Shown: one piece after another, positions 875 through 25,672 of the stretch | How the letters are laid out: every line of letters begins with the position of its first letter | Numbering within the stretch: the stretch's first letter is position 1 | Virus record (IMG/VR): IMGVR_UViG_3300034683_000273 | DNA from: an uncultured virus (IMG/VR IMGVR_UViG_3300034683_000273) | Taxonomy: Duplodnaviria; Heunggongvirae; Uroviricota; Caudoviricetes | Reading direction: 5' to 3' (one strand) | Length of the DNA: 25,790 bases | Translations under genes and position numbers: made by a program | Notes under the pieces: generated by a model | The model's database searches: none | Seen by the model: only the letters and a program-made list of their open reading frames with translations | What the model was told of the DNA's origin: nothing

Positions 875-1253
875 CGGTGCAGACCTCCTTGCCCATAAGC
901 AACTCGGTGTAAATTTTGGTATAGCGTTCACACTCGCTGCCCTCGGAGTCCGCAATGGCTCTAAGGTAAAAATCTGCCGCTTCTTTTCTGCTGTCCCAGA
1001 CTTCCGTCTGACCGTAGCAGGTAATCTTCACAGCATCCAATTTTCGACAACTATCGACACCGTACACTACATTCAAGCCGGAGCCGTTATCCCAACGAAC
1101 CATAATGGAGGCAGTATCATCCACCCCTCGAACCGTACCCTTCGTGCCAATGGGTGGTGCCTGCATATCTTCCATCTGCACCAGTTCCACACGGCAGCCT
1201 ACAGGGTAGGCTTTGCGTACACGCTCCACTGTTTCTTTATTCGGAAATCTCAT
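867..1253 (-). CDS. DUF4314-like protein with C-terminal extension
   Basis: Start ATG 1253 after GGAGGTG. Signature YPVGCRVELVQMED...GTKGTV..VDD...V.WDNGSGL.V.YG.D. Confidence 0.8.
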   Translation of the reverse strand: MRFPNKETVERVRKAYPVGCRVELVQMEDMQAPPIGTKGTVRGVDDTASIMVRWDNGSGLNVVYGVDSCRKLDAVKITCYGQTEVWDSRKEAADFYLRAIADSEGSECERYTKIYTELLMGKEVCTDE

Positions 1254-1986
1254 GCTTGGCACCTCCTTTGAAAGCACTGCTGCCGGAAAGATTGCGGAGC
1301 AGGATTTTTCGCTCGGTCTTGTATTCGTTTCCGATAAAGCCGAGGCGGAGGAGAAAACAGCGGAATGCGTATTTCTCGTTGTCCACCGCTTTTTCCGTGG
1401 CGCTGATGCGTTTCTGATTTCGGCTCATTTCACAAAGGGCTGCAATGAAGTGTGTGTAAGTCTTGACCTCGTCAGCATCCAATCCATCCTCAAACCAAGG
1501 GAAGGAAATCCTATCCTCTCCGATTTCGATTGGGGTTGCCGTAATTCCGAGTGCCTTTTTTATAAGACTGCCCTTGGCATCCAGAAGGTTCGTAAGGTTT
1601 CCCACCACCACCTTATCAAGGGGAATCGCCACCGTAAGGCCAACGATTTCGTTCTGTGGCTCGGCAGGGTCTTCGGAAAGGTAAGCCGGAGGGCAATCCG
1701 CCAAGGGTTCTTCGCCCTCAATAACAGGCTCCTGCTGTTCGCTATCGTAAGCGGAGAAGTCGCTCTCAAAACCTTCATCGTAAAGATGTTCTAACAGTCT
1801 CTCAATGACCTCGCTGTCTGCCATATCATCAAACAGCAGGTTGCCTTCCTTGTCGATTGTGAAGTAGTCTACTTCGTAGGCGCAGGAAGGAACTCCCTTA
1901 TACCTGCAATCAACCTCAAGCCAGGTGGCTATGGTCTGTGCCAGTTCCTTGCGTTTTTTACCGGGTACATTGTAATGAATTCTCAT
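1237..1986 (-). CDS. Phage hypothetical protein (often annotated 'virulence-related protein'), 249 aa
   Basis: Strong RBS AAAGGAGG. C-terminal NEKYAFRCFLLRLGFIG.EYK..RKILL.NL.G.SAF motif; acidic central linker. Confidence 0.8.
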   Translation of the reverse strand: MRIHYNVPGKKRKELAQTIATWLEVDCRYKGVPSCAYEVDYFTIDKEGNLLFDDMADSEVIERLLEHLYDEGFESDFSAYDSEQQEPVIEGEEPLADCPPAYLSEDPAEPQNEIVGLTVAIPLDKVVVGNLTNLLDAKGSLIKKALGITATPIEIGEDRISFPWFEDGLDADEVKTYTHFIAALCEMSRNQKRISATEKAVDNEKYAFRCFLLRLGFIGNEYKTERKILLRNLSGSSAFKGGAKHEISE

Positions 1987-2010
1987 ATAGAAATCCTCCT
2001 TTAATTTTCG

Positions 2011-2050
2011 GTACTACATATATCACTCTAAAGCCGATAAATAGCAAGTC
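2011..2050 (-). promoter_or_regulatory. Putative promoter for the small-gene cassette
   Basis: Minus strand reads GACTTGCTATTTATCGGCTTTAGAGTGATATATGTAGTAC: TTGCTA (-35-like) and TGATATAT (extended -10-like) upstream of the RBS. Confidence 0.45.
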
Positions 2051-2084
2051 ATATGTGCAAATACCAGGGAGGATTTCTGTAGAT

Positions 2085-3902
2085 TTATTCCGCCCCGTTT
2101 TGTGTATAGTACACGATGCCCGTCAGCACATAAACCACATTTGGCAGTGCCACGCCGTTGCCCCACATCTTATACTCCGCCGAATCGGAATGAGGGTTCT
2201 GCAGCCACTTGAATATCTGCTTCCGTGTTTTCGGTTTACTTGATGTTCCCACAATCTTACGATGTGTTTCAAAGATTTCTGCCCACCGTGTGAGTTCCTC
2301 TTCAGAAGGAAGTTTCTCACCGAGGTCAGCACACCACCAATCCGGAAATCCCTGGAGCCTTGCACATTCCGTAGGGGTAAGCCTACGCACAATGTATTCC
2401 AGATCCGCATCGGTATCGTTGACAAGCGGAGGGTCTTTGTAATCCGTAGCTACTAAAGTGTTGGCGAGTTCCTCTTCCGCAGAAGTAAAGAACGATGCCT
2501 TGCTGCTTGAGTAGGTGGGAACGGCAACCGCATCGGGCCCTGTGGCTTTCAGTGTGGAATTGACACCCTCATCACTGATACCCATATTCCTTGCGAAGTT
2601 CTGACCGCAGTTATAACTTTCACGGTCGATTGCATAGACAACGGCGTGGCGGTCTACGGTGTTCAAAGTGTACATGACATCACTTTCGGTATAACCGTTA
2701 CCGTGGTGGGAAGGACGAGAACCGTTTCCTTCCACAATGGCAATGCCACCCTGATTGCAAGTAGGATTTCCTCCATTGCCATCGAGAGTGCGGGAAGTAT
2801 CCGCTTTATAAAATCCGCTGTTGGGATTTGCAGACTTCATTGCATTGCTATCTTTTGAGCAGACACCGAAAGCAGTGGGCTCTACTACAAACGGCTGATT
2901 GTTTCCGCCTGTGCCGTAGGTCGCAGCCACAGTCTGCGCCACATCCAAGGGACCCACATAACGGGTATCCTGGGAGTGGTTTTCATATACGGTTGCAGGA
3001 ACAACTCCCGCACGAAGTGTTGGAGATTTTTCTGCCTCATAGCCAATGCCACGGCTATCGGCAGAATGTTCCGTGCAAAATCCCGCAGACTCCATCACGC
3101 AAGGCGGATGATGTGCTTCGGCACGAAGGGTGCAGGTCACATCATCGGTGACATCTATACGATTGCCACCCTGGTCATTTAAGACGATGCCTGTCGCAGG
3201 AGTGCTTTCTTCAGAAGTTCCGGCAGTTCTTTTCCACGGGCATCGGCTCGTTTCAAGATTCCTAAACAAGCCTTCTGACTCAAATAATATTTTCCCGGCA
3301 CACCCACCATTAAAATCTGCGACAAGATAGATACGTCTTCTTCTTTGGGGAACTCCCCAAAACTGCGCGTCAACACATCTCCAGGCGATACTGAAACCAT
3401 TTCCCAACAGTTCTCCTGCTCCTGTCCATTTTCCTTTTGGAGGGCAAGGGACAGCATAGTCACCTTTGACGGACGCGACTGCTTCGAGGACTGCTTTGAA
3501 ATCTTCTCCTGCGTTTGAGGAGAAGGCGCCGGGGACATTTTCCCACACGATGTATCTTGGATACTCGCCATTGGTTTTACACCTCATTTCTTTTACGATT
3601 CGGATTGCTTCGTAAAACAGGCAGGAGCGTTCTCCATCAAGACCACTGCGTTTTCCCGCCACACTCATATCCTGGCAGGGACTGCCGAATGTGATGATGT
3701 CTACAGGTTCAACCTCTGCACCGTTGATAGTTGAAATATCTCCAAGGTGCTTCATCTTAGGGATACGCTTGCTTGTTACACGAATAGGAAAAGGCTCAAC
3801 TTCCGATGCCCACAAAGGGGTAATACCGGAAATCAAGCCTCCCAAAGGAAATCCCCCGGAGCCGTCAAAGAGGCTACCGAGGGTCATAGGTTTCTTATTC
3901 AT
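2085..3902 (-). CDS. DNA (cytosine-5)-methyltransferase with very long variable region
   Basis: Motif I SLFDGSGG, IV FGSPCQDMS, VI WENVPG, VIII PQRRRRIY, IX RRLTPTECARLQGFP, X YKMWGNGV. Start ATG 3902 overlaps the end of the upstream gene. Confidence 0.95.
   Translation of the reverse strand: MNKKPMTLGSLFDGSGGFPLGGLISGITPLWASEVEPFPIRVTSKRIPKMKHLGDISTINGAEVEPVDIITFGSPCQDMSVAGKRSGLDGERSCLFYEAIRIVKEMRCKTNGEYPRYIVWENVPGAFSSNAGEDFKAVLEAVASVKGDYAVPCPPKGKWTGAGELLGNGFSIAWRCVDAQFWGVPQRRRRIYLVADFNGGCAGKILFESEGLFRNLETSRCPWKRTAGTSEESTPATGIVLNDQGGNRIDVTDDVTCTLRAEAHHPPCVMESAGFCTEHSADSRGIGYEAEKSPTLRAGVVPATVYENHSQDTRYVGPLDVAQTVAATYGTGGNNQPFVVEPTAFGVCSKDSNAMKSANPNSGFYKADTSRTLDGNGGNPTCNQGGIAIVEGNGSRPSHHGNGYTESDVMYTLNTVDRHAVVYAIDRESYNCGQNFARNMGISDEGVNSTLKATGPDAVAVPTYSSSKASFFTSAEEELANTLVATDYKDPPLVNDTDADLEYIVRRLTPTECARLQGFPDWWCADLGEKLPSEEELTRWAEIFETHRKIVGTSSKPKTRKQIFKWLQNPHSDSAEYKMWGNGVALPNVVYVLTGIVYYTQNGAE
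3179..3571 (-). CDS. Nested +1-frame gene inside the C5 MTase; putative MTase beta-like subunit, 130 aa
   Basis: Same strand as the MTase, +1 frame. RBS GAGGTG (3580-3585) lies 8 nt before the ATG. C-terminus EFPKEEDVSILSQILMVGVPGKYYLSQKACLGILKRADARGKELPELLKKALLRQ matches the L-x-x-IL...KYYLS segment normally found in-frame after motif VIII. Confidence 0.7.
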   Translation of the reverse strand: MASIQDTSCGKMSPAPSPQTQEKISKQSSKQSRPSKVTMLSLALQKENGQEQENCWEMVSVSPGDVLTRSFGEFPKEEDVSILSQILMVGVPGKYYLSQKACLGILKRADARGKELPELLKKALLRQASS

Positions 3903-5160
3903 CTGCACCAACCTCCTTCACAAGGTCGGCATAAGGTATCTGCACACCGTTACGGATAACAAATACACCGTCTGCATCACCCGTATCTTCCACATATCTG
4001 CGGAGGATAACCGATGCGTACTTTTCATCCAGTTCCATCGTATGGCAGATGCGGTTGGTACGCTCACAAGCCATCAAGGTAGAACCGCTGCCACCGAATG
4101 TATCAACCACAATGGAATTCTCACGGCTGGAATTGCCGATGGGATATGCCAAAAGGTCGAGTGGCTTGGAAGTCGGATGGTTTTTATTTTTCTTCGGCTT
4201 ATCGAAGTTCCAGATGGTGGTCTGGCTTCTGCCTGCGTTCTTGCTCCAGTAGTGCTTGCCGTTCTGAAGGAAACCGTAAAGCACAGGTTCGTGCTGCCAC
4301 TGATAATCACTTCTGCCAAGCACTAAGGAATTTTTCACCCAAATGCAGCAGCCGGAAAGGTGAAAGCCTGCATCGATAAATGCCTTACGGAAATTCAAGC
4401 CTTCCGTGTCGGCATGAAAAATGTATGCTGCACCGCCTTTTTCCAGGTGGGCAGCCATATTCTGAAATGCCGAAAGCAAAAATTCATAAAACTTCTCGCT
4501 TGCCATCTTATCGTTTTTAATTGACAGACCATCGGAACTTTCAAAGGCAACGTTATACGGAGGGTCGGTCAGCACAAGGTTGGCTTTCTTGCCGTCCATA
4601 AGACTTGCAACATCATCGGGATTGGTGGCATCACCGCACATCAGTCTGTGTCTGCCCACCGTCCACACATCGCCACGCTCCACAAAGGCAGCCTTTTCCA
4701 AAGCATCGTTTAAATCAAAATCGTCCTCTTCCACATCGGATTTATCATCCCCGGCAAAGAGGTCTGCGATTTCATCATCGTCAAAGCCCGCAAGACCGAT
4801 ATCAAAATCCATGCCCTGCAGGGACTCGATTTCGATTTTCAGCATTTCCTCATCCCATCCTGCGTCAAGCGCCATACGGTTGTCGGCAAGGATGTATGCT
4901 TTCTTCTGTGCCTCGGTAAGGTAGTCCACAAAAACACAAGGCACCTCATCGATGCCTTCTTCCTTGGCTGCCATCACACGTCCGTGTCCGGCAATGATGC
5001 CGTAATCCTTATCAATAATGACAGGATTGATAAAGCCGAACTCACGGAGCGAAGAACGGAGCTTCAAAATCTGCTCCGGGGAGTGGGTGCGGGCATTATT
5101 TACATACGGCACCAATTTTGTAATGGCAACAAGTTCCATCTGCGTTGTTGTTCTTCCCAT
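3895..5160 (-). CDS. ParB/Srx-like N-terminal domain fused to N4/N6 DNA methyltransferase (beta class)
   Basis: Start ATG 5160 after AAGGAGG. N-terminal LVPYVNNARTHS...IIAGHGR...ILADNR; catalytic TDPPY precedes SAM-binding DTFGGSGST; HPTSKP. Confidence 0.93.
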   Translation of the reverse strand: MGRTTTQMELVAITKLVPYVNNARTHSPEQILKLRSSLREFGFINPVIIDKDYGIIAGHGRVMAAKEEGIDEVPCVFVDYLTEAQKKAYILADNRMALDAGWDEEMLKIEIESLQGMDFDIGLAGFDDDEIADLFAGDDKSDVEEDDFDLNDALEKAAFVERGDVWTVGRHRLMCGDATNPDDVASLMDGKKANLVLTDPPYNVAFESSDGLSIKNDKMASEKFYEFLLSAFQNMAAHLEKGGAAYIFHADTEGLNFRKAFIDAGFHLSGCCIWVKNSLVLGRSDYQWQHEPVLYGFLQNGKHYWSKNAGRSQTTIWNFDKPKKNKNHPTSKPLDLLAYPIGNSSRENSIVVDTFGGSGSTLMACERTNRICHTMELDEKYASVILRRYVEDTGDADGVFVIRNGVQIPYADLVKEVGADE

Positions 5161-5170
5161 AGCACCCTCC

Positions 5171-5953
5171 TTAATACAGACCCCATTCAGCGAACTTTTC
5201 AAAACCGCCGAGGTTCTGAATGTACTGACGGGCAATCTCTACGATTTCCGCATATGGCTTGCCATCAATGGTGTCATCTCCAATGGCACAGCAAAGCTGC
5301 ACAGGTTCTTGGGTTTTCTGTGCTTTTAAGAACGCATAGATATTTACAGACACATCTGCCTTGGATAAATCCTTACCGTGCAGACCACCGCCTGTAACGG
5401 AATCAGCCATATCACTGCCCAGCTTACGGTTGGTAGCACCCGTATCTACATCCGTGCCGCCTGTCCAGTCACCGAGGGGATTGATTTCCGCACCAGGATA
5501 GAGTCTCTTCAAATCTGCCGTTTCCACATTGCTCTGGCAGATGATCAGGCGAACACCGTCCATAATGTACTTTCCGTCATAAGGGCATCTGCCGTAAATG
5601 TCACGGGCAATGCGGGAAAGTTCCTGCTGCTCCTGTGTCAGAGGCATACCCTTGAAGATACCGTTATCTCCGCAACGCACACCATCCTTCTGATTATCCG
5701 ACAGGTGCTTATCCTGGGGAATGATAACGATGTCCGTATCCATCACACCTGCGATACGATGCACGGCATTTATAATTTCTGCTTTATCCAAATCTGCTGT
5801 GGTTTCAATAATGGTATGGCACACACCATGACCGATTAAAACCTCCACAGCAATTTTCGGATTTTCTTCTTTTGCATAAGCCAGATCCACAATGGCTCCT
5901 GCGATTCTGTCTGCCACCTTGTCCGGATGGCTCGGATTTACTTTTTCAATCAT
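5171..5953 (-). CDS. metK: Short S-adenosylmethionine synthetase (MetK-like), 260 aa
   Basis: EKVNPSHPDKVADRI (cf. GHPDK), CGDNG (cf. AGDQG), DTGATNRKL (cf. DxGLTGRK), GGGLHGKDLSKADVS (cf. GGGAFSGKDxxKVDRS). Confidence 0.88.
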   Translation of the reverse strand: MIEKVNPSHPDKVADRIAGAIVDLAYAKEENPKIAVEVLIGHGVCHTIIETTADLDKAEIINAVHRIAGVMDTDIVIIPQDKHLSDNQKDGVRCGDNGIFKGMPLTQEQQELSRIARDIYGRCPYDGKYIMDGVRLIICQSNVETADLKRLYPGAEINPLGDWTGGTDVDTGATNRKLGSDMADSVTGGGLHGKDLSKADVSVNIYAFLKAQKTQEPVQLCCAIGDDTIDGKPYAEIVEIARQYIQNLGGFEKFAEWGLY

Positions 5954-18867: not shown

Positions 18868-19077
18868 ATGTCTGAAACAAAGAAAAGCATTACTCCAATG
18901 GAGCATTACAATATGTCAGATTTCCTTCGTGGTCAGTCTTCACGAATTATTACCACCATATCAGAAGAGGACAAAGCAGGATTTGTCCTGAAAAACGGTA
19001 AGCCTATGGCAGTTATCATTTCAAATGAAAGATACAAACGACTGCTACAGGCTGGTATCGACATTAACGAATATTAA
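18868..19077 (+). CDS. Phd/YefM-family antitoxin-like DNA-binding protein, 69 aa (no adjacent toxin)
   Basis: YNMSDFLRGQSSRII......GFVLKNGKPMAVIISNERY matches the Phd/YefM pattern (i.d.....s.i.....p..I.knGkP.aVl.s.e.y). Confidence 0.8.
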   Translation: MSETKKSITPMEHYNMSDFLRGQSSRIITTISEEDKAGFVLKNGKPMAVIISNERYKRLLQAGIDINEY

Positions 19078-19096
19078 TCCGGAGGAATCAGATATT

Positions 19097-21259
19097 ATGG
19101 CTAAAGCTAAGATTACAGAAGTTATGATGGACGACAAGACCATTGATGCATCCAAAGAAATAGCAATGGTATTTTCTATTGCAAACACATTAAGAGGGCC
19201 TTACAAGCCGGACAAATATAAGGATGTTATCATTCCGATGACCATCCTCCGCCGTCTTGAATGTGCCTTGGCAGCAACGAAAACCGCAGTGGTAGACACA
19301 TACAAGAAGAATCCGAAAGCACCTGCCCAGCTATTGTGTAAGAAGTCAGGCTATCAGTTCTACAATACTTGCGAATATGATTTGAAAAAGTTACTTACAG
19401 AAGCTCCTGCTATTGTAGAGAATCTCACTTTTTATGTTGAATCATTTTCTCCTAATGTGCAGGCAATTTTTGAAGAACTGAAATTTAAAGAAGAAATCAA
19501 AAACCTTGATAAGAACAACCGCTTGCTTGGCGTTGTTAAGAAATTCTCTGAACTGGACTTAGATCCTGAAAAAGTCGATAACCTAAAGATGGGTTATATG
19601 TTCGAGGAAATCATCCGTAGATTCTCTGAAAATGCGTCTGCAGGTGACCACTACACTCCTCGTGAAGTTATCCGTCTTCTGACAAGCATTTTGCTTGCTG
19701 AAGGATGCAGTGACATTTTCAGCGAAGGTCGTGAAGTTACCGTATTGGATATGGCCTGTGGTACAGGTGGTATGCTTGCTACTGCTCACGATTTCATTGT
19801 GCGTATGAACCCGGATGCCAATGTTCGTCTGTTTGGACAGGAAAACAGTCCTGAGTCCCACGCTATCTGCCTTGCAGATATGTTGATTAAAAACCAGGCT
19901 GCAGAAAACATCCGCTTTGCTGACACTATGAAAGAGGACTGTTTTGAAGACACCGATATGCGTTTTGTCATCGTAAATCCGCCGTTTGGCGAATCCTGGG
20001 GTGGCAAAGATGCCGGAGATGGTGTTGAAAAAGCTGTCCGTAAAGAACACAAAAAAGGAAAAGACGGCAGATTCCCTGCAGGTCTTCCTGCGACCGGAGA
20101 TATGCAGTTGCTTTTCATGCAGCACGCCGTTGCAAAAATGCAGAAAAAAGTTGGTCGCGCTGCTATCATCACTAACGGTTCTCCTCTTTTCTCCGGAAAC
20201 ACAACCAGTGGTGAAAGCCAGATTAGAAGATATCTGCTTGAAAATGACTTGGTAGAAGCTATCATCGGACTGCCTTCTCAGTTGTTCTACAACACTGACA
20301 TTGCTATTTACGCCTTCATTCTTTCTAAGGGAAAAAGAGATGAACGCAAAGGCAAGGTTCAGTTTATTGATGCAACAGATATGTGGACTCCTTTGAAACG
20401 CTCTCTCGGTAAAAAGCGTAGAGAAATTTCCAAAAAGCAGATTACACTCATTACTGAAATGTATTCTGATTTCGCCCCTGGCAAGAAAACAATATGGGAT
20501 GAAAAACGCAAGCATGACTGTGTGATTGAAAGCAAAATATTTGACCGTGAGGAATTCCTTTATAAAGAATGGTCTGTGTACCAGCCTCTTCAGCGTAGTG
20601 GTGCTATCAATGCGGATACTATTGAGGCACTTCGCAACAGTGCTTATTTCACAGCGAACACAAACATTTTCAATGAAGCAAAATTTGAGGAATTAGAACA
20701 GACAAACCCTCGTAGTGATGCCGATGAAAAAGCATATCAGAAGCAGATTAAGGGACGTGAGTTCACTGCTGCCGTTATCGAAGCGTTGACCGCTCATATC
20801 TCCGACACCGTATATACCGATTTTTCAAAGTTTGAGATTGCTCTGAAAAAGGCACTTGCGGATGTGGATGGATTGTCTCCTTCTCGCTTGGGTGGAATTG
20901 CTATGGAAATGTCGGCTATCGATAAGACAGCCGTTGTTCAGAAGGACAAAAAAGGCCATATCATTATTGACTCTACTACTAAGGACACAGAAATCATCCG
21001 TTTGAACCAGGATGTTAAGGCTTATATGGAGGCTGAAGTATTCCCTCATATTCCAGATGCTATTTACTGCTACGAGTTTGACGAGAAAAAGGCTGAAAGT
21101 GCAACAAACAAGGAACGTTTAGGTGCTGAATTCCCGTTCACACGCTATTTCTACGAATACCGTGAACCGGAAAAAGCTGATGATTTGCTGGCTCAGTTTA
21201 TGGAATTAGAGGCTTCCCTGTCCGAGAAAATTGCTGCCTTGCAGAAAGGGGCAAAGTAA
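19097..21259 (+). CDS. hsdM: Type I restriction-modification methyltransferase subunit M
   Basis: Start ATG 19097 after GGAGGA. YKDVIIPMTILRRL, GDHYTPREV, LDMACGTGGML, VNPPF, NGSPLFSG, FTRYFYEY. Confidence 0.96.
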   Translation: MAKAKITEVMMDDKTIDASKEIAMVFSIANTLRGPYKPDKYKDVIIPMTILRRLECALAATKTAVVDTYKKNPKAPAQLLCKKSGYQFYNTCEYDLKKLLTEAPAIVENLTFYVESFSPNVQAIFEELKFKEEIKNLDKNNRLLGVVKKFSELDLDPEKVDNLKMGYMFEEIIRRFSENASAGDHYTPREVIRLLTSILLAEGCSDIFSEGREVTVLDMACGTGGMLATAHDFIVRMNPDANVRLFGQENSPESHAICLADMLIKNQAAENIRFADTMKEDCFEDTDMRFVIVNPPFGESWGGKDAGDGVEKAVRKEHKKGKDGRFPAGLPATGDMQLLFMQHAVAKMQKKVGRAAIITNGSPLFSGNTTSGESQIRRYLLENDLVEAIIGLPSQLFYNTDIAIYAFILSKGKRDERKGKVQFIDATDMWTPLKRSLGKKRREISKKQITLITEMYSDFAPGKKTIWDEKRKHDCVIESKIFDREEFLYKEWSVYQPLQRSGAINADTIEALRNSAYFTANTNIFNEAKFEELEQTNPRSDADEKAYQKQIKGREFTAAVIEALTAHISDTVYTDFSKFEIALKKALADVDGLSPSRLGGIAMEMSAIDKTAVVQKDKKGHIIIDSTTKDTEIIRLNQDVKAYMEAEVFPHIPDAIYCYEFDEKKAESATNKERLGAEFPFTRYFYEYREPEKADDLLAQFMELEASLSEKIAALQKGAK

Positions 21260-22593
21260 TGGAAACTATGAAACAAACGGGTATCCAGTGGATTGGCGAA
21301 ATACCATCTGACTGGAATACCAAAAGAATAAAATACATGGCTAATTTAAAAGGTCGTATAGGTTGGCAGGGACTCACATCCGATGAATACCAGGACGAGG
21401 GTGCATACCTTATCACAGGTGTTGACTTTGCCGATGGCGGCATTGATTGGGAAAACTGCGTTCATGTACCGATGAAACGTTGGGAAGAAGCAAAAGATAT
21501 CCAAATTCAAAATGGAGACCTTTTGATTACCAAGGACGGCACCATCGGAAAAGTAGCAATTGTATCCGATATGCCGGGCGAAACATCTCTTAATAGTGGT
21601 GTTCTTCGTATTATGCCAATCGAAGGCTATAGCCGTAGATTTCTTTACTGGGTAATCAAGTCCGATGAATTCTGGAATTGGTTTAATTTTAGAAATGCCG
21701 GCAACAGCACTATTATTCATCTGTATCAAGGTGATTTTGCCGAGTTCCTTTATGCTTTTCCAAGTTACGAGGAACAAGAAGCTATCGCCGATTTTCTTGA
21801 TGAGCATTGCAGTAAATTGGATAGCATTATTGCTGACCTCGAAAAGCAAATTGAAACACTCAAGGCTTATAAAAAGTCACTTATTACCGAAGCCGTAACA
21901 AAAGGACTTGATAACAATGTACCAATGAGGGATAGCGGAATTGCTTGGTTTGGACGTATTCCTATGGCTTGGAAAATCAAAAAAATAAAATATGTTGTAG
22001 ACTCAATACGAGATGTTGACCATTATATGCCCAATGATGCGTTAGACAACAGTAATAGTGTTCCATATATTATGACTGGTGATTTGAAGGAAACACTTTC
22101 TTCTATTGATTTTGAAATGTGTAAGCAGATTACCGAAAATGATTATGTAAGGCTATCACAAAAAGTTACCCCTAATGAAGGAGATGTCATTTTTGCAAGA
22201 TACGCTACTATCGGTACGGTTGCTTATGTTGATGTGGAAAGAAAATGTGTAATTTCGTATTCTTGCGTAACGATTAAACCTTCAAAAAGTACTTTATACG
22301 GAAAGTATTTGTTTTACTATCTCAAATCACTTGCATTCGGAGAAGAGGTCAAAAAATTTATTAACATAAACACGCAAGGAAATGTAGGAATCGAATCCTT
22401 AGGTCAAAGTTATATAACTATTCCTTCTCTTGATGAACAGATTGTTATATCAGAATGGCTCGACCAAAAGAGCAAAATTATTGATAGCACAATTTCAAAT
22501 AAAGAAGACCAGCTAAACAATATGCGTATGCATAAGGCTTCTCTCATTTTCGAATATGTCACAGGAAAAAAATGTGTAAAGGAGGTTCAGTAA
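21259..22593 (+). CDS. hsdS: Type I RM specificity subunit S (two TRDs)
   Basis: Repeated MKQTGIQWIGEIPSDW / MRDSGIAWFGRIPMAW and PSYEEQEAIADFLD / PSLDEQIVISEWLD; TAATG overlap with hsdM. Confidence 0.95.
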   Translation: METMKQTGIQWIGEIPSDWNTKRIKYMANLKGRIGWQGLTSDEYQDEGAYLITGVDFADGGIDWENCVHVPMKRWEEAKDIQIQNGDLLITKDGTIGKVAIVSDMPGETSLNSGVLRIMPIEGYSRRFLYWVIKSDEFWNWFNFRNAGNSTIIHLYQGDFAEFLYAFPSYEEQEAIADFLDEHCSKLDSIIADLEKQIETLKAYKKSLITEAVTKGLDNNVPMRDSGIAWFGRIPMAWKIKKIKYVVDSIRDVDHYMPNDALDNSNSVPYIMTGDLKETLSSIDFEMCKQITENDYVRLSQKVTPNEGDVIFARYATIGTVAYVDVERKCVISYSCVTIKPSKSTLYGKYLFYYLKSLAFGEEVKKFININTQGNVGIESLGQSYITIPSLDEQIVISEWLDQKSKIIDSTISNKEDQLNNMRMHKASLIFEYVTGKKCVKEVQ

Positions 22594-22594
22594 T

Positions 22595-25500
22595 ATGCCT
22601 ATTAAAGCAGACCAACTTCGAGAAAAAGAAGATTATCAAAAATTGATTATGGAACGCTTGCATGAAGACAACGATTTCCGTATTCGCCCAAACACGGCAT
22701 ATAAGCCGGGATTGGCTATGGACACAGAGATGCTTCTTGAGTTCCTGGAGGACACCCAGCACGATGAAATGGAACACCTCCGCCGTATGTATAAAGACCG
22801 TACAGAAGAAACGGTTATTAATTATATCAATGCTGAAATCAACAAGGAAAGCCGTGGCTTGATTGACGTTATCAAGCACGGTGTTGAATTCGACAATGGT
22901 GCCACACTGAAACTGATGTATCGCAAGCCGGACAGCACCATCAATACCCAGGCTGTTGCAAACTACAAAAAGAATATCTTCTCCGTCATGGAGGAGGTAT
23001 ACCACAAAGCCGATGAGCGTGTAGATTTAGTTCTTTTCCTCAACGGTCTGGCGATATTTGCTATTGAGTTGAAATGCAACACATCCGGTCAGACTTACAA
23101 AGATGCCATCAAACAGTATAAGGAAGAGCGCGATGCCACTACCCGTCTTTTCAAGACCAAGGTCGGTGTTTTCGCTGCTTTCGCTATGGATTTGAACGAA
23201 GCATATTTTACAACCGAACTCAAAGGTGCAGATACCTTCTTTAATCCATTCAATATTGGCGAGAATTTCGGCAAAGGAAATCCTCATAACGAAGATGGCT
23301 TGAATGTTTCCTATATGTGGGAAAACATCTGGACGAAGGATAAAATTCTGTTCTTGATTGAACGCTTTATTTACATCAAGAAGAAAGAAACTCGCAATGC
23401 CGACACCGGAAAAATCAAAAAATCCAAGGTGCTAATTTTCCCTCGTTTCCATCAGCTTCGTGCCGTGGAACGTGTTATGAACGATGTCATTATCAACCAC
23501 ACATCCTGCAACTATCTCATCGAGCACTCTGCAGGCAGTGGTAAAACTGAAACAATTTCCTGGTTGGCTCATATACTTGCAACCGTTCATGACGCGAACA
23601 ACGATAATGTATTTGATACGGTTCTAATTATCACCGACCGTATCATCGTTGACCGTCAGCTTCAAGAGGCTATCCTCGGCATCGAGCATAAAAGCGGCCA
23701 GGTAAAAGTTATGGATGACAAGTGCGATTCAGAAGATCTGGCTATCGCTCTTGGCGGAAACACGAAAATTGTTGTTACCACAATTCATAAGTTCTACTAT
23801 ATCCTCAATAACAATCTGCTCGGCGACCTTAAGAACAAGAAATTCGCAGTGCTGATTGATGAGGCTCACTCTTCCACCGAAGGCGTTTATATGCAGTCAG
23901 TTACCAATGTTCTGACCAATGAGGAAGATGAGGAAGAGAAAACCGAAGAAGATAAAATGCTTGAAGAAATCCAGAAAAGCGGTAAGCAGAAAAATGTTTC
24001 TATGATTGCTTTTACTGCTACTCCTAAACCAGATACCCTTCAGCTTTTCGGTACCCTTAACGCAGAGGGTAAGAAAGAATCCTTTGACCTGTATTCCATG
24101 AAACAGGCTATTGAAGAAGGATACATACTGAATGTTCTGGACAACTATGTTACCTGGAAAACCTACTGCCACATCAACAAGGCTATCGAAGGTGACCCTG
24201 AACTTCAATCCATTGCTGCAAAACGCAAAATGGCTCGATTCATTGATTTGCATGATACCAACATTGCTCAAAAGGTTGAAATCATCATCGAGCATTTCAG
24301 AGCCAATGTTGTGGGTTGTCTTGGTGGAAAAGCAAAAGCAATGGTAATTACATCCTCCCGCCCTGCTGCCGTTAAATACAGACAAGAGTTTGAAAATTAT
24401 ATCCAAGCAAAGGGTTATTCCGGAATCAAAGCACTTGTAGCCTTTTCCGGCAAAGTAAAACTGAACGATACAGAATACACCGAACCTGTTATGAACGGCT
24501 TTAAGGAAGAAGAACTGCGATACGAATTTGACCGTAGCTGCTACCAGGTACTTATTGTTGCAGATAAATATCAGACCGGGTTTGACCAGCCGAAATTGGT
24601 GGCAATGTATGTCGACAAGCGTCTGCGTGGTGTACAGGCAGTACAGACACTCTCTCGCTTGAATAGAATTTGCCCTCCTTATGATAAGACCACTTTTGTC
24701 CTGGACTTCAAAAACAGCTACGATGATATCAAGGCAGCTTTTGAACCTTACTACAAGGATACCGTTTTATTTGAGACTATTTCGCCGTCCGACATTCGTG
24801 ACCTCGACCGTGAGATTGATGCCTACGAATTCTTGGATGCAGACGATATTGATGAATTTAACACTTATCTGTATAAGGAAAACCGCACTTCCAAGGACAA
24901 GCAGCGTATGTGGGCATTGCTCGACAGTGCATTAAAGCTGATTACCAAGCGTCCTGAACTGGAGCAGATGGAAATCAAGATTACGATTCGCCGTTTCTTA
25001 AAGGGATATTGTTTCCTTATCCAGGCTACGGCTTATGAAAATCTTGAATTCCATAAGAGATATAACTTCCTCTCCTACTTGATTAAGGAACTCAATCCTG
25101 GTGGCGGCGGAAACAACTTTGATATTGCGGACAAAATTACCGTAAGCGATTTTAGACAAAAGCAGATGGAGAAACACGAAGGCGAAGAAATCGAAGCCAA
25201 GCCGGAAGTAAAAATCAAGAAGCCAAAGCCTGCAAGTATTGAAGAAGAACAGAAAAAACTGCTTTCCCAGATCATTGATGAGGTAAACGCTCTGTATGAT
25301 AAAGACTACGAGCCAGATTTCACTACGAAGGCAGCAATGCAAATCCGCGACCTGCTTTTGAAAAATCCTACACTCAAAGACCGTCTTGAAAAGAGCGCCA
25401 AGAATAACACCTTAAGTGAATTCAAATTCACATACGATGACTGCGTGCAGGACGCATTGGTAGAAGGCTATGACCATAATGTTGATTTCTATACTCTTCT

Positions 25501-25672
25501 TTTGAACAATGAAGAAATCAGAGCAAAATTCGCCAACGTATTTATGACCGAGGTGTATCGCATTTTGCGTGGTCCTGTAACTACTGTAAACTATACTGAT
25601 ATCATTAACAGCACGCCTCTTTCAAAGGTAGCTGAAGATTCTGCCCCTTACGGCAACGATAAAAAAGACTAA
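22595..25672 (+). CDS. hsdR: Type I restriction endonuclease subunit R
   Basis: Nuclease VDLVLFLNGL...IELK; HSAGSGKT; DEAH; FTATP; KYQTGFDQP; QTLSRLNR. Confidence 0.96.
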   Translation: MPIKADQLREKEDYQKLIMERLHEDNDFRIRPNTAYKPGLAMDTEMLLEFLEDTQHDEMEHLRRMYKDRTEETVINYINAEINKESRGLIDVIKHGVEFDNGATLKLMYRKPDSTINTQAVANYKKNIFSVMEEVYHKADERVDLVLFLNGLAIFAIELKCNTSGQTYKDAIKQYKEERDATTRLFKTKVGVFAAFAMDLNEAYFTTELKGADTFFNPFNIGENFGKGNPHNEDGLNVSYMWENIWTKDKILFLIERFIYIKKKETRNADTGKIKKSKVLIFPRFHQLRAVERVMNDVIINHTSCNYLIEHSAGSGKTETISWLAHILATVHDANNDNVFDTVLIITDRIIVDRQLQEAILGIEHKSGQVKVMDDKCDSEDLAIALGGNTKIVVTTIHKFYYILNNNLLGDLKNKKFAVLIDEAHSSTEGVYMQSVTNVLTNEEDEEEKTEEDKMLEEIQKSGKQKNVSMIAFTATPKPDTLQLFGTLNAEGKKESFDLYSMKQAIEEGYILNVLDNYVTWKTYCHINKAIEGDPELQSIAAKRKMARFIDLHDTNIAQKVEIIIEHFRANVVGCLGGKAKAMVITSSRPAAVKYRQEFENYIQAKGYSGIKALVAFSGKVKLNDTEYTEPVMNGFKEEELRYEFDRSCYQVLIVADKYQTGFDQPKLVAMYVDKRLRGVQAVQTLSRLNRICPPYDKTTFVLDFKNSYDDIKAAFEPYYKDTVLFETISPSDIRDLDREIDAYEFLDADDIDEFNTYLYKENRTSKDKQRMWALLDSALKLITKRPELEQMEIKITIRRFLKGYCFLIQATAYENLEFHKRYNFLSYLIKELNPGGGGNNFDIADKITVSDFRQKQMEKHEGEEIEAKPEVKIKKPKPASIEEEQKKLLSQIIDEVNALYDKDYEPDFTTKAAMQIRDLLLKNPTLKDRLEKSAKNNTLSEFKFTYDDCVQDALVEGYDHNVDFYTLLLNNEEIRAKFANVFMTEVYRILRGPVTTVNYTDIINSTPLSKVAEDSAPYGNDKKD

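Follow-up and report, generated by a model that had tools for sequence, protein, structure and literature searches.

A gene for a C5 cytosine DNA methyltransferase (MTase), located on a 25,790-nucleotide stretch of DNA from an uncultured virus (IMG/VR record IMGVR_UViG_3300034683_000273; Duplodnaviria; Heunggongvirae; Uroviricota; Caudoviricetes), contains a second open reading frame (ORF) of 130 codons that lies entirely inside it in the +1 frame. We refer to the whole of this stretch as the window, and coordinates given below are on its minus strand unless stated otherwise. We consider the nested ORF to be a genuine overprinted gene, which most likely encodes a separately translated small subunit of the MTase, and we place the probability of this reading at roughly 0.68. 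The solid part of the case consists of the ORF with its start signals, the purifying selection that acts on its frame, and the homology of its product to a domain that is encoded elsewhere without overlap.

A second frame within the methyltransferase gene

The main ORF (2085..3911) comprises 608 codons counted from a TTG at 3911, with an ATG at 3902 as the likely start of the MTase, giving a protein of 605 amino acids. It scores above the profile cut-offs of both PF00145 (E 1.1e-39, 137 bits, cut-off 22) and TIGR00675 dcm (E 1.8e-35, 123 bits, cut-off 100.65), and motifs I, IV, VI, VIII, IX and X could all be located, identifying it from profile and motif matches as a C5 cytosine DNA methyltransferase. 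Motifs I, IV (signature PCQ), VI (ENV) and VIII (QRR) fall within the first 200 residues and are followed by a variable region, which opens with LNDQGG (3165..3182), and then by motifs IX and X. The gap between motifs VIII and IX, which bears on whether the enzyme may be multispecific, with several target-recognition domains in tandem, is about 260 amino acids in the window, and homologous MTases range from 509 to 766 amino acids, differing by inserted or deleted blocks.

An initial annotation of the window, made from the letters alone, had drawn attention to a 130-codon ORF in the +1 frame of this gene, and the ORF list and the 340-nt offset of its start within the main ORF bear this out (3179..3571, 130 codons plus TAA, wholly within 2085..3911). 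Its ATG (3569..3571) is built from main-frame codons AAT/GAT and GGN (N/D-G) and is preceded, across an 8-nt spacer (TAAAACCA, 3579-3572), by a Shine-Dalgarno (SD)-like GAGGTG (3580..3585) made from the main codons ATG AGG TGT, so that this signal is embedded, as had been described, in the stretch GAA ATG AGG TGT AAA ACC encoding E-M-R-C-K-T. A TGA in the +1 frame (3584..3586), 4 codons 5' of the ATG, marks the 5' limit of the open nested frame, which likewise begins 4 codons ahead of the ATG in all 75 loci whose match starts there. The motif coordinates also agree with the extent first proposed: the ORF begins upstream of motif VI (WENVPG, 3528..3545; GKMSP in the nested frame of the same bases), covers motif VIII (PQRRRRIYLV, 3321..3350; nested frame PKEEDVSILSQIL) and stops at 3179-3181 within LNDQGG, where the variable region starts. 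Across the C-terminal half of the nested ORF the main frame reads GKILFESEGLFRNLETSRCPWKRTAG... and its translation holds no SILSQIL...KYYLS...RGKELP segment, while motif IX (RRLTPTECARLQGFPD, 2340..2387) remains in the main frame; both points had been correctly noted.

To assess how far this arrangement is conserved, the 80 best loci were taken from at least 617 related ones in viruses, with main-frame MTase identities of 47-100%; 77 of the 80 include the nested start, and the other 3 end at contig edges. Counts of stops and start codons refer to 69 unique genes, the codon alignment to 63 genes (28 clusters at 90% and 15 at 80% amino-acid identity), and the peptide alignment to 70 nested peptides. 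The initial annotation had reasoned that a real nested gene should show a conserved SD, an open +1 frame and suppressed synonymous variation in homologues, and that frequent interruption by stops would speak against it. The +1 frame is open over 133-145 codons in all 77 loci, and across the retained part of the 3 contig-cut loci. Outside the nested ORF the same frame contains 1383 stops in 33,840 codons, or 0.041 per codon, a rate at which about 5 stops would be expected per 131 codons; none was seen in any homologue examined, and the nested ORF is consequently more than a product of chance. A null model, in which synonymous codons were redrawn at random while the protein sequence and codon usage of every gene stayed fixed, predicted an open frame with a geometric-mean probability of about 0.09 per gene (the first 65 codons giving 0.22 and the remaining ones 0.41). 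These values cannot simply be multiplied because the homologues are kin, although their direction is clear.

The start signals are similarly constrained. Of the 77 loci, 75 have an ATG at the aligned position, the remaining two having either a slightly shifted ATG in the same open frame (L042) or GTG codons only (L052). For the main-frame Asn or Asp codon that provides the T of the nested ATG, every one of the 69 unique genes uses AAT or GAT, against gene-wide frequencies of 48.5% of Asn codons for AAT and 55% of Asp codons for GAT. The Arg codon that creates GAGG is AGG, again in 69 of 69, yet AGG accounts for only 17% of Arg codons gene-wide, and neighbouring synonymous sites (in the Lys, Cys and Thr codons by the SD) vary among loci.

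Selection was measured as main-frame synonymous heterozygosity in the 63-gene alignment, observed relative to that expected from codon usage. The ratio is 0.78 upstream of the nested ORF, 0.59 in the SD/ATG stretch, 0.56 in the nested N-terminal half and 0.31 in the C-terminal half (minimum 0.08), returning to 0.80-0.86 downstream of the nested stop; the interval that straddles the stop gives 0.67, and values are at least 0.82 from the next interval onward. As the third position of a main codon is the second position of a nested one, every such change alters the nested protein. Moreover, codon periodicity switches to the nested frame across the last 44 nested codons. Outside the nested ORF, nucleotide diversity at main codon positions one, two and three is 0.19-0.26, 0.12-0.21 and 0.53-0.59, with amino-acid identities of 0.35-0.41 in the nested frame and 0.74-0.81 in the main frame; over main residues 201-222 the corresponding diversities are 0.31, 0.13 and 0.23 (identity 0.74 nested, 0.67 main), and over main residues 223-244 they are 0.46, 0.21 and 0.20 (0.75 nested, 0.47 main). 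Further upstream, nested residue W56 is near-invariant, whereas the main-frame residues at that place vary (L/V/M, then G/A). All the expected signs of dual coding are therefore present, and on the evidence of these alignments the nested frame is a genuine overlapping protein-coding gene under purifying selection.

Split, permuted and fused relatives

Homologues of the nested peptide also occur outside this overlapping arrangement. At E<=1e-3 it matches 2784 cluster representatives (of 1.84 billion searched), many of them stand-alone proteins of about 130 amino acids and many others carrying the sequence at the N-terminus of longer proteins. In two relatives (L105 and L106) the MTase is encoded by two adjacent, non-overlapping genes: an alpha chain (243 and 233 amino acids, respectively) with motifs I-VIII, and a beta chain (465 and 468 amino acids) in which a nested-like N-terminal domain is followed by target recognition domains (TRDs), motif IX and motif X. 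The beta N-terminus of L105 shares 49% identity with the nested peptide of the window over 75 amino acids (E 2e-17). A blastn comparison of the L105 and L106 alpha genes with the DNA of their beta N-domains revealed no similarity, and in the latter DNA stops interrupt both remaining forward frames, neither of which contains MTase motifs. The same domain is thus encoded in these relatives by unrelated, non-overlapping DNA, from which it follows that the nested peptide is not a by-product of MTase coding. An overlapping version of the alpha/beta split is found in L107-L109, and proteins of the beta type form multi-member clusters (P0187, 41 members; P0186, 13 members).

These relatives also bear on whether the suppression of synonymous change might reflect a non-coding constraint, such as an RNA structure or a DNA site, with the open frame being incidental. 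Suppressed synonymous variation cannot by itself separate coding from non-coding elements. However, this explanation is close to refuted, given the flip of three-base periodicity into the nested frame, the conservation of both start codon and SD, and the finding that L105 and L106 encode the same amino-acid sequence with unrelated DNA whose MTase-equivalent (-1) frame is stop-broken.

Other relatives depart from the motif order of the window MTase. Circularly permuted MTases (L082, L083, L085, L086, L087, L091 and L102) present the order IV-VI-VIII-TRDs-IX-X-I-II in one frame, starting at MKHLGD right after motif II, and they still carry a +1 nested ORF of about 160 codons.

Proteins of about 240-260 amino acids that join the MTase to the nested sequence, and longer ones of the P0009 type, were considered as potential in-frame versions of the nested gene and rejected, as the eight of about 240-260 amino acids that were read switch frame at eight different places and most of the clusters listed for such forms have a single member. 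The forms of about 240 amino acids are accordingly read as indels or errors, and L081 and L084 are simple indels. Three such fusions are recurrent database proteins of 240-258 amino acids, namely P0195, P0196 and P0197 (21, 35 and 17 member sequences, respectively); in P0196 motifs I-VIII are joined to the nested frame right at an A-run (..AGK|YYLS..), and P0195 and P0197 are assumed to be alike from their length and match. Sequencing errors in a homopolymer, natural off-switch variants or slippage could each account for these proteins.

The initial annotation had itself offered a programmed frameshift as an alternative to a nested gene. A +1 shift out of the MTase frame, for example at GGG AAA ATA, would yield a truncated motif I-VIII protein with a KYYLS...RGKELP tail and would require no independent start. 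The A-run GGGAAAATA at GK|YYLS in the window, and the database proteins that possess this exact junction (P0196, with P0195 and P0197 assumed alike), are consistent with such a mechanism. Nevertheless, we regard it as improbable. Its product would be devoid of the conserved GEFP..S.LSQIL part, which uses the same bases as motif VIII, and the ATA codon is already accounted for by the near-invariant nested Tyr95. Furthermore, conservation extends to the ATG, the SD and 65 open codons upstream, W56 is retained in the nested frame while the main-frame residues vary, and the seven other fused forms of about 240 amino acids that were read shift frame at seven different places, as random indels would.

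A second recoding scheme starts at the nested ATG and shifts back into the MTase frame near the nested stop, generating a beta-like chain (N-domain, TRDs, motifs IX and X) beside the full-length enzyme. Natural beta chains have this very architecture, and two database proteins (P0162 and P0165) join the nested to the main frame within the linker, yet both are single-member clusters. Because the position of the nested stop and the tail vary among homologues (133-145 codons), because synonymous variation recovers just after the stop, and because no conserved shift site is evident (although no search was aimed at one), this scheme appears highly improbable. Separate translation of the nested ORF from its own start is the reading that we retain below.

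The nested protein and its predicted partner

The predicted product of the nested ORF has two dissimilar halves. Residues 1-68 (3368..3571) are Ser/Thr/Lys-rich and predicted to be disordered, and their codons overlap motif VI and the variable loop that follows it; residues 69-128 (3188..3367) form a C-terminal domain with three predicted helices, overlapping motif VIII, GKILFESEG and the linker. The consensus of this domain is FGEFPKEE..S.LSQIL...VPxKYYLS.KAC.GILRRA..RGKELP..L..AL.RQA, and that derived from the 70 aligned nested peptides is GE.P.EE..S.LSQIL...VPEKYYLS.KAC.GILRRA..RGKELP..L..ALERQA; the N-terminal half is variable, with W56, G49 and L44 each retained in 90% or more of the sequences. 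An AlphaFold2 monomer built from the same 70-peptide alignment has a mean predicted local distance difference test score (pLDDT) of 57.8, with residues 1-76 mostly below 50 and helices at 82-86, 99-112 and 118-129 (pLDDT 74-88).

It had been proposed that the C-terminal half corresponds to the segment which ordinary C5 MTases carry in-frame after motif VIII, but this idea found no sequence support: none of the 70 nested peptides matched PF00145 at E up to 10, and searches of PDB sequences with phmmer and with the nested profile (E up to 10 for the profile) retrieved no C5 MTase. What emerged instead is that the beta chains of split relatives carry a nested-like segment in-frame ahead of their TRDs. 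Pfam gave only sub-threshold chance matches for the nested peptide and NCBIfam none, a Foldseek comparison of the nested model with the PDB returned nothing at E<=0.001, and matches in the ESM Atlas consisted solely of small viral hypothetical proteins without a Pfam family. A weak match was obtained to the PHROG family phrog_16143 (E 8.6e-5, 23.1 bits; nested residues 25-100 to positions 59-130 of a 139-position profile), whose label, 'DNA methyltransferase', is an annotation and not a tested function; the match suggests, at the level of sequence, that some phage annotations may already call such small ORFs. The AlphaFold2 model of the natural beta chain of L106 (13-sequence alignment; mean pLDDT 37.9, predicted template modelling score 0.22) was too poor for a fold search.

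A complex of the 605-amino-acid MTase (40-sequence alignment) with the nested protein (70-sequence alignment) was predicted alongside 3 controls, a test that the initial annotation had suggested, and the model supports binding. The pair scored 0.71 compared with 0.00 for the best of the 3 controls, a level reached by 116 of 157 solved complexes and by 2 of 215 mismatched pairs; contact agreement among the complex runs was at least 63%, and partner pLDDT at least 58. Confidence is highest for the contacts that nested residues 82-97 (LSQIL...KYYL) make with main residues 504-516 (IVRRLTPTECARL, motif IX) and with main residue 185 in motif VIII, the motif IX patch as a whole pairing main 501-516 with nested 86-97, so that motif IX (2340..2387) provides the top-confidence contact surface for the nested domain in the model. 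Further contacts are predicted between nested 37-45 and 53-58 and main 143-168. The model therefore argues for binding of the nested protein to the MTase in the region of motifs VIII and IX.

These contacts, together with the position of the domain directly ahead of the TRDs in beta chains, suggest how the small protein may act. It would be translated from its own SD and ATG within the MTase mRNA, giving a product with a disordered N-terminal half and a small C-terminal domain of three helices, which would then bind the MTase and bridge its catalytic half (the region of motifs VI-VIII) and the motif IX hinge. In split relatives the homologous N-terminal domain of the beta chain would have this bridging role in cis, and in the type represented by the window in trans. 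By inference, translation begins at the internal start and the product binds the MTase, with methylation perhaps depending on it. In fragment-complementation work on M.SssI (PMC3404938), the best split point is placed between motif VIII and the TRD, which is the same junction as the split in relatives of the window enzyme.

A protein under selection need not serve the enzyme in whose gene it lies, since selection demonstrates coding and not function. The product of the nested ORF might regulate the expression of the MTase or its timing, or might act on a target in the host or phage, and its location in the MTase gene would then reflect no more than the site at which overprinting arose; its C-terminal hairpin resembles a helix-turn-helix and could bind other partners, and in mycobacteriophage Omega (see below) the nested ORF remains separate even though the MTase is already split in two. 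We consider a role outside the MTase unlikely, as the homologous domain is covalently joined to the half carrying the TRDs and motifs IX and X in L105, L106 and proteins of the P0186/P0187 type, the complex model passes its controls, and the ORF accompanies this MTase subfamily even in very distant phages.

Several points nonetheless weigh against the conclusion that the nested ORF encodes an MTase subunit, to which the kinship of the homologues mentioned above should be added. The complex score of 0.71 is the model's own confidence and was computed from alignments made for this analysis, and the DNA that the two chains share could inflate predicted contacts with main residues 143-226, to which the motif IX contacts are not subject. 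The monomer model is poor overall (mean pLDDT 57.8, N-terminal half below 50), and the searches of Pfam, NCBIfam and the PDB provided no fold or family that would explain the nested domain. In addition, the main chain already possesses all ten motifs, such that it is not evident why a further chain should be required. In four RNA-library runs, drawn from two studies, contigs are 90-99% alike across much of the MTase gene, the nested region included, with no listed indels; the runs, kept as contigs, contain just 0.18-0.24 of the sampled words. They show only the presence there of relatives with 90-99% similarity, and we do not count them as evidence on transcription, strand, 5' ends or translation. 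On sequence and modelling, the nested product is probably an MTase subunit. Of the two-polypeptide, dual-coded MTase originally envisaged, the dual-coded gene under selection stands, and the second polypeptide is made probable by beta-chain homology and the complex model.

Known systems and distribution among phages

The closest known layout is that of M.EcoHK31I (Escherichia coli HK31, recognition sequence YGGCCR). According to PMC2836561 and PMC3404938, it is a heterodimeric C5 MTase with a small chain that contains motif IX and a large chain that does not; activity requires the two chains together, and they associate through the N-terminal part of the small one. Its small chain is encoded in another frame wholly inside the gene for the large chain, as is the nested ORF of the window. 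In contrast, motif IX and motif X of the window enzyme lie in the main frame, the nested protein contains no numbered motif, and the window family is phage-borne, far more widespread, and has a long variable region. The description of the nested product as EcoHK31I beta-like consequently survives for its alternative-frame layout, but not for the motif IX that defines the small chain, and is best taken as an analogy. By that analogy the nested system would work like M.EcoHK31I, yet it is not of that type because motif IX stays in the main frame.

A second point of comparison is the M.AquI type, for which PMC3404938 gives an alpha chain with motifs I-VIII plus a portion of the variable region and a beta chain with the rest and motifs IX-X. 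A split between motif VIII and the TRDs is likewise present in L105, L106, L107-L109 and the gp127/gp128 pair of Omega, and the nested peptide is homologous to the N-termini of their beta chains. The main frame of the window enzyme, however, is unbroken across all motifs, and so this MTase is not split in the M.AquI manner; just its small N-domain is separate and overprinted.

An annotated precedent for the nested layout is provided by Streptococcus pneumoniae phage MM1 (AJ302074.2), in which ORF14 (141 amino acids, 'putative methyltransferase') is contained entirely, in the +1 frame, within the C5 MTase ORF13 and ends with SLSDILEEEVDERYFLS, a core motif shared with the window peptide. ORF14 differs in its weak similarity to that peptide (BLASTP E 0.02) and in having no KAC.GILRRA..RGKELP helices, and ORF13 is a short MTase of 385 amino acids. 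The GenBank entry for MM1 lists no experimental evidence for ORF14.

With the nested peptide as a tblastn query, 78 phage records were matched, including Clostridia gut phages, streptococcal Javan prophages, Vibrio phages and the P1/P7/SJ46 group. In phage P1 (OP279344.1) a +1 ORF of 164 codons with the same C-terminal motif (CLLSQVLEQTSIPQRYFLSSKACAGILRRAEARGRKLP) lies inside dmt, and the record annotates dmt alone. A further four MTases were matched in the main frame only, and direct reading revealed a +1 ORF in every one: the frame is open for 135 codons in dmt of Sinorhizobium phage NV1.1.1, 156 codons in gp25 of Bcep22, 159 codons in gp127 of mycobacteriophage Omega, and 112 codons in gp27 of ZF40, where the motif is degenerate. 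In all of these, as in P1 dmt, the layout resembles that of the window: a +1 ORF opens ahead of motif VI, closes past motif VIII and carries the C-terminal motif. The window, its relatives, P1, NV1.1.1, Bcep22 and Omega are hence united, among Dmt-like phage C5 MTases, by such an ORF and by the family motif S.LS.IL...(K/R)(Y/F)(Y/F)LS..AC.GILRRA..RGK.LP.

The prediction that standard annotation would miss the small subunit is realised in the records of P1, NV1.1.1, Bcep22, ZF40, Omega, Terrisporobacter phage TPDSL_ph1 and Streptococcus phage Javan105, all of which leave the nested ORF unannotated, with MM1 as the annotated exception. A literature search that did not extend to the MM1 and P1 genome papers came upon no account of a gene nested in these MTases.

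In Omega (NC_004688.1) the C5 MTase is split into gp127 (883..1626, motifs I-VIII) and gp128 (1633..2187, TRD and motifs IX-X) which, with the separate nested ORF, would potentially make a three-polypeptide enzyme. The dmt gene of the P1 isolate OP279344.1 (L112; 898..3939 of that record) encodes 1013 amino acids, a C5 domain followed by an adenine-MTase-like C-terminal part, and is interrupted, precisely at the catalytic Pro-Cys, by an intein-like insertion (...GGTP / CFTAGHMVL...VVHN / CQAFS).

Genomic setting and wider meaning

The C5 MTase of the window sits in a phage replication and packaging module that also includes an exonuclease, a Gp2.5-like single-stranded DNA-binding protein, a DNA polymerase, a primase-helicase, a small terminase subunit and an amidoligase, and an identical copy is present on the viral contig L001. 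Directly upstream is a gene fusing a ParB-N domain to an N6/N4 DNA MTase (3895..5235; PF01555, PF02195, phrog_498), the 3' end of which overlaps the start of the C5 MTase ORF (3895..3911), suggesting translational coupling of the two MTases. The same pair of genes occurs in the same order in TPDSL_ph1 and Javan105.

Just upstream of both MTase genes, an ORF of 260 amino acids (5171..5953) matches phrog_1569, a family of unknown function. Its N-terminus (..NPSHPDKVADRIAG..) resembles that of S-adenosylmethionine synthetase, and it is plausible that the phage thereby carries its own supply of methyl donor. A comparable order is described for prophage Phi1207.3 (PMC4260502), where orf29, a S-adenosylmethionine synthetase, lies upstream of orf32 (a ParB-methylase) and orf33 (a C5 methylase). 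Three large co-directional ORFs of 744, 444 and 1025 amino acids (19025..25672, plus strand), on the strand opposite that of the replication genes, match PHROGs of unknown function, the first also weakly matching the DNA-MTase family phrog_6380, and this region could be a restriction or defence-type module.

A broader interpretation of the nested gene may be put forward tentatively, at somewhat less than even odds. A very large and ancient clade of phage C5 MTases that are regarded as 'single-chain', including P1 Dmt, Bcep22 gp25, Omega gp127/128, the enzymes of streptococcal Javan prophages and those of many gut Clostridia phages, may in fact be obligate hetero-oligomers, in which a third, unannotated component of about 130-165 amino acids, overprinted in the +1 frame on motifs VI-VIII, would clamp the catalytic half to the motif IX hinge and be required for methylation. 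By the same tentative account, this module would have been repeatedly fused to the beta half, freed from the beta half, or un-overlapped from the catalytic half.

If this were true, the family would provide a rare case among bacterial viruses in which both the birth and the 'escape' of an overprinted gene can be traced, and, in DNA phages, few long same-strand overlapping genes would be as widespread as the nested ones. Versions that occur naturally without overlap, or fused, allow the origin and resolution of an overprinted gene to be studied directly, and with P1 and E. coli offering a ready genetic system for the nested gene, the case is easy to test. Were the small protein needed for activity, recoding the codons of the annotated ORF during cloning would silently destroy a subunit, with a bearing on methylome work, on REBASE-type assignment of specificity and on the engineering of restriction-evading phages for laboratory hosts. 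Thousands of phage and prophage cytosine MTases, P1 dmt among them, would then have been mis-described as the products of one gene.

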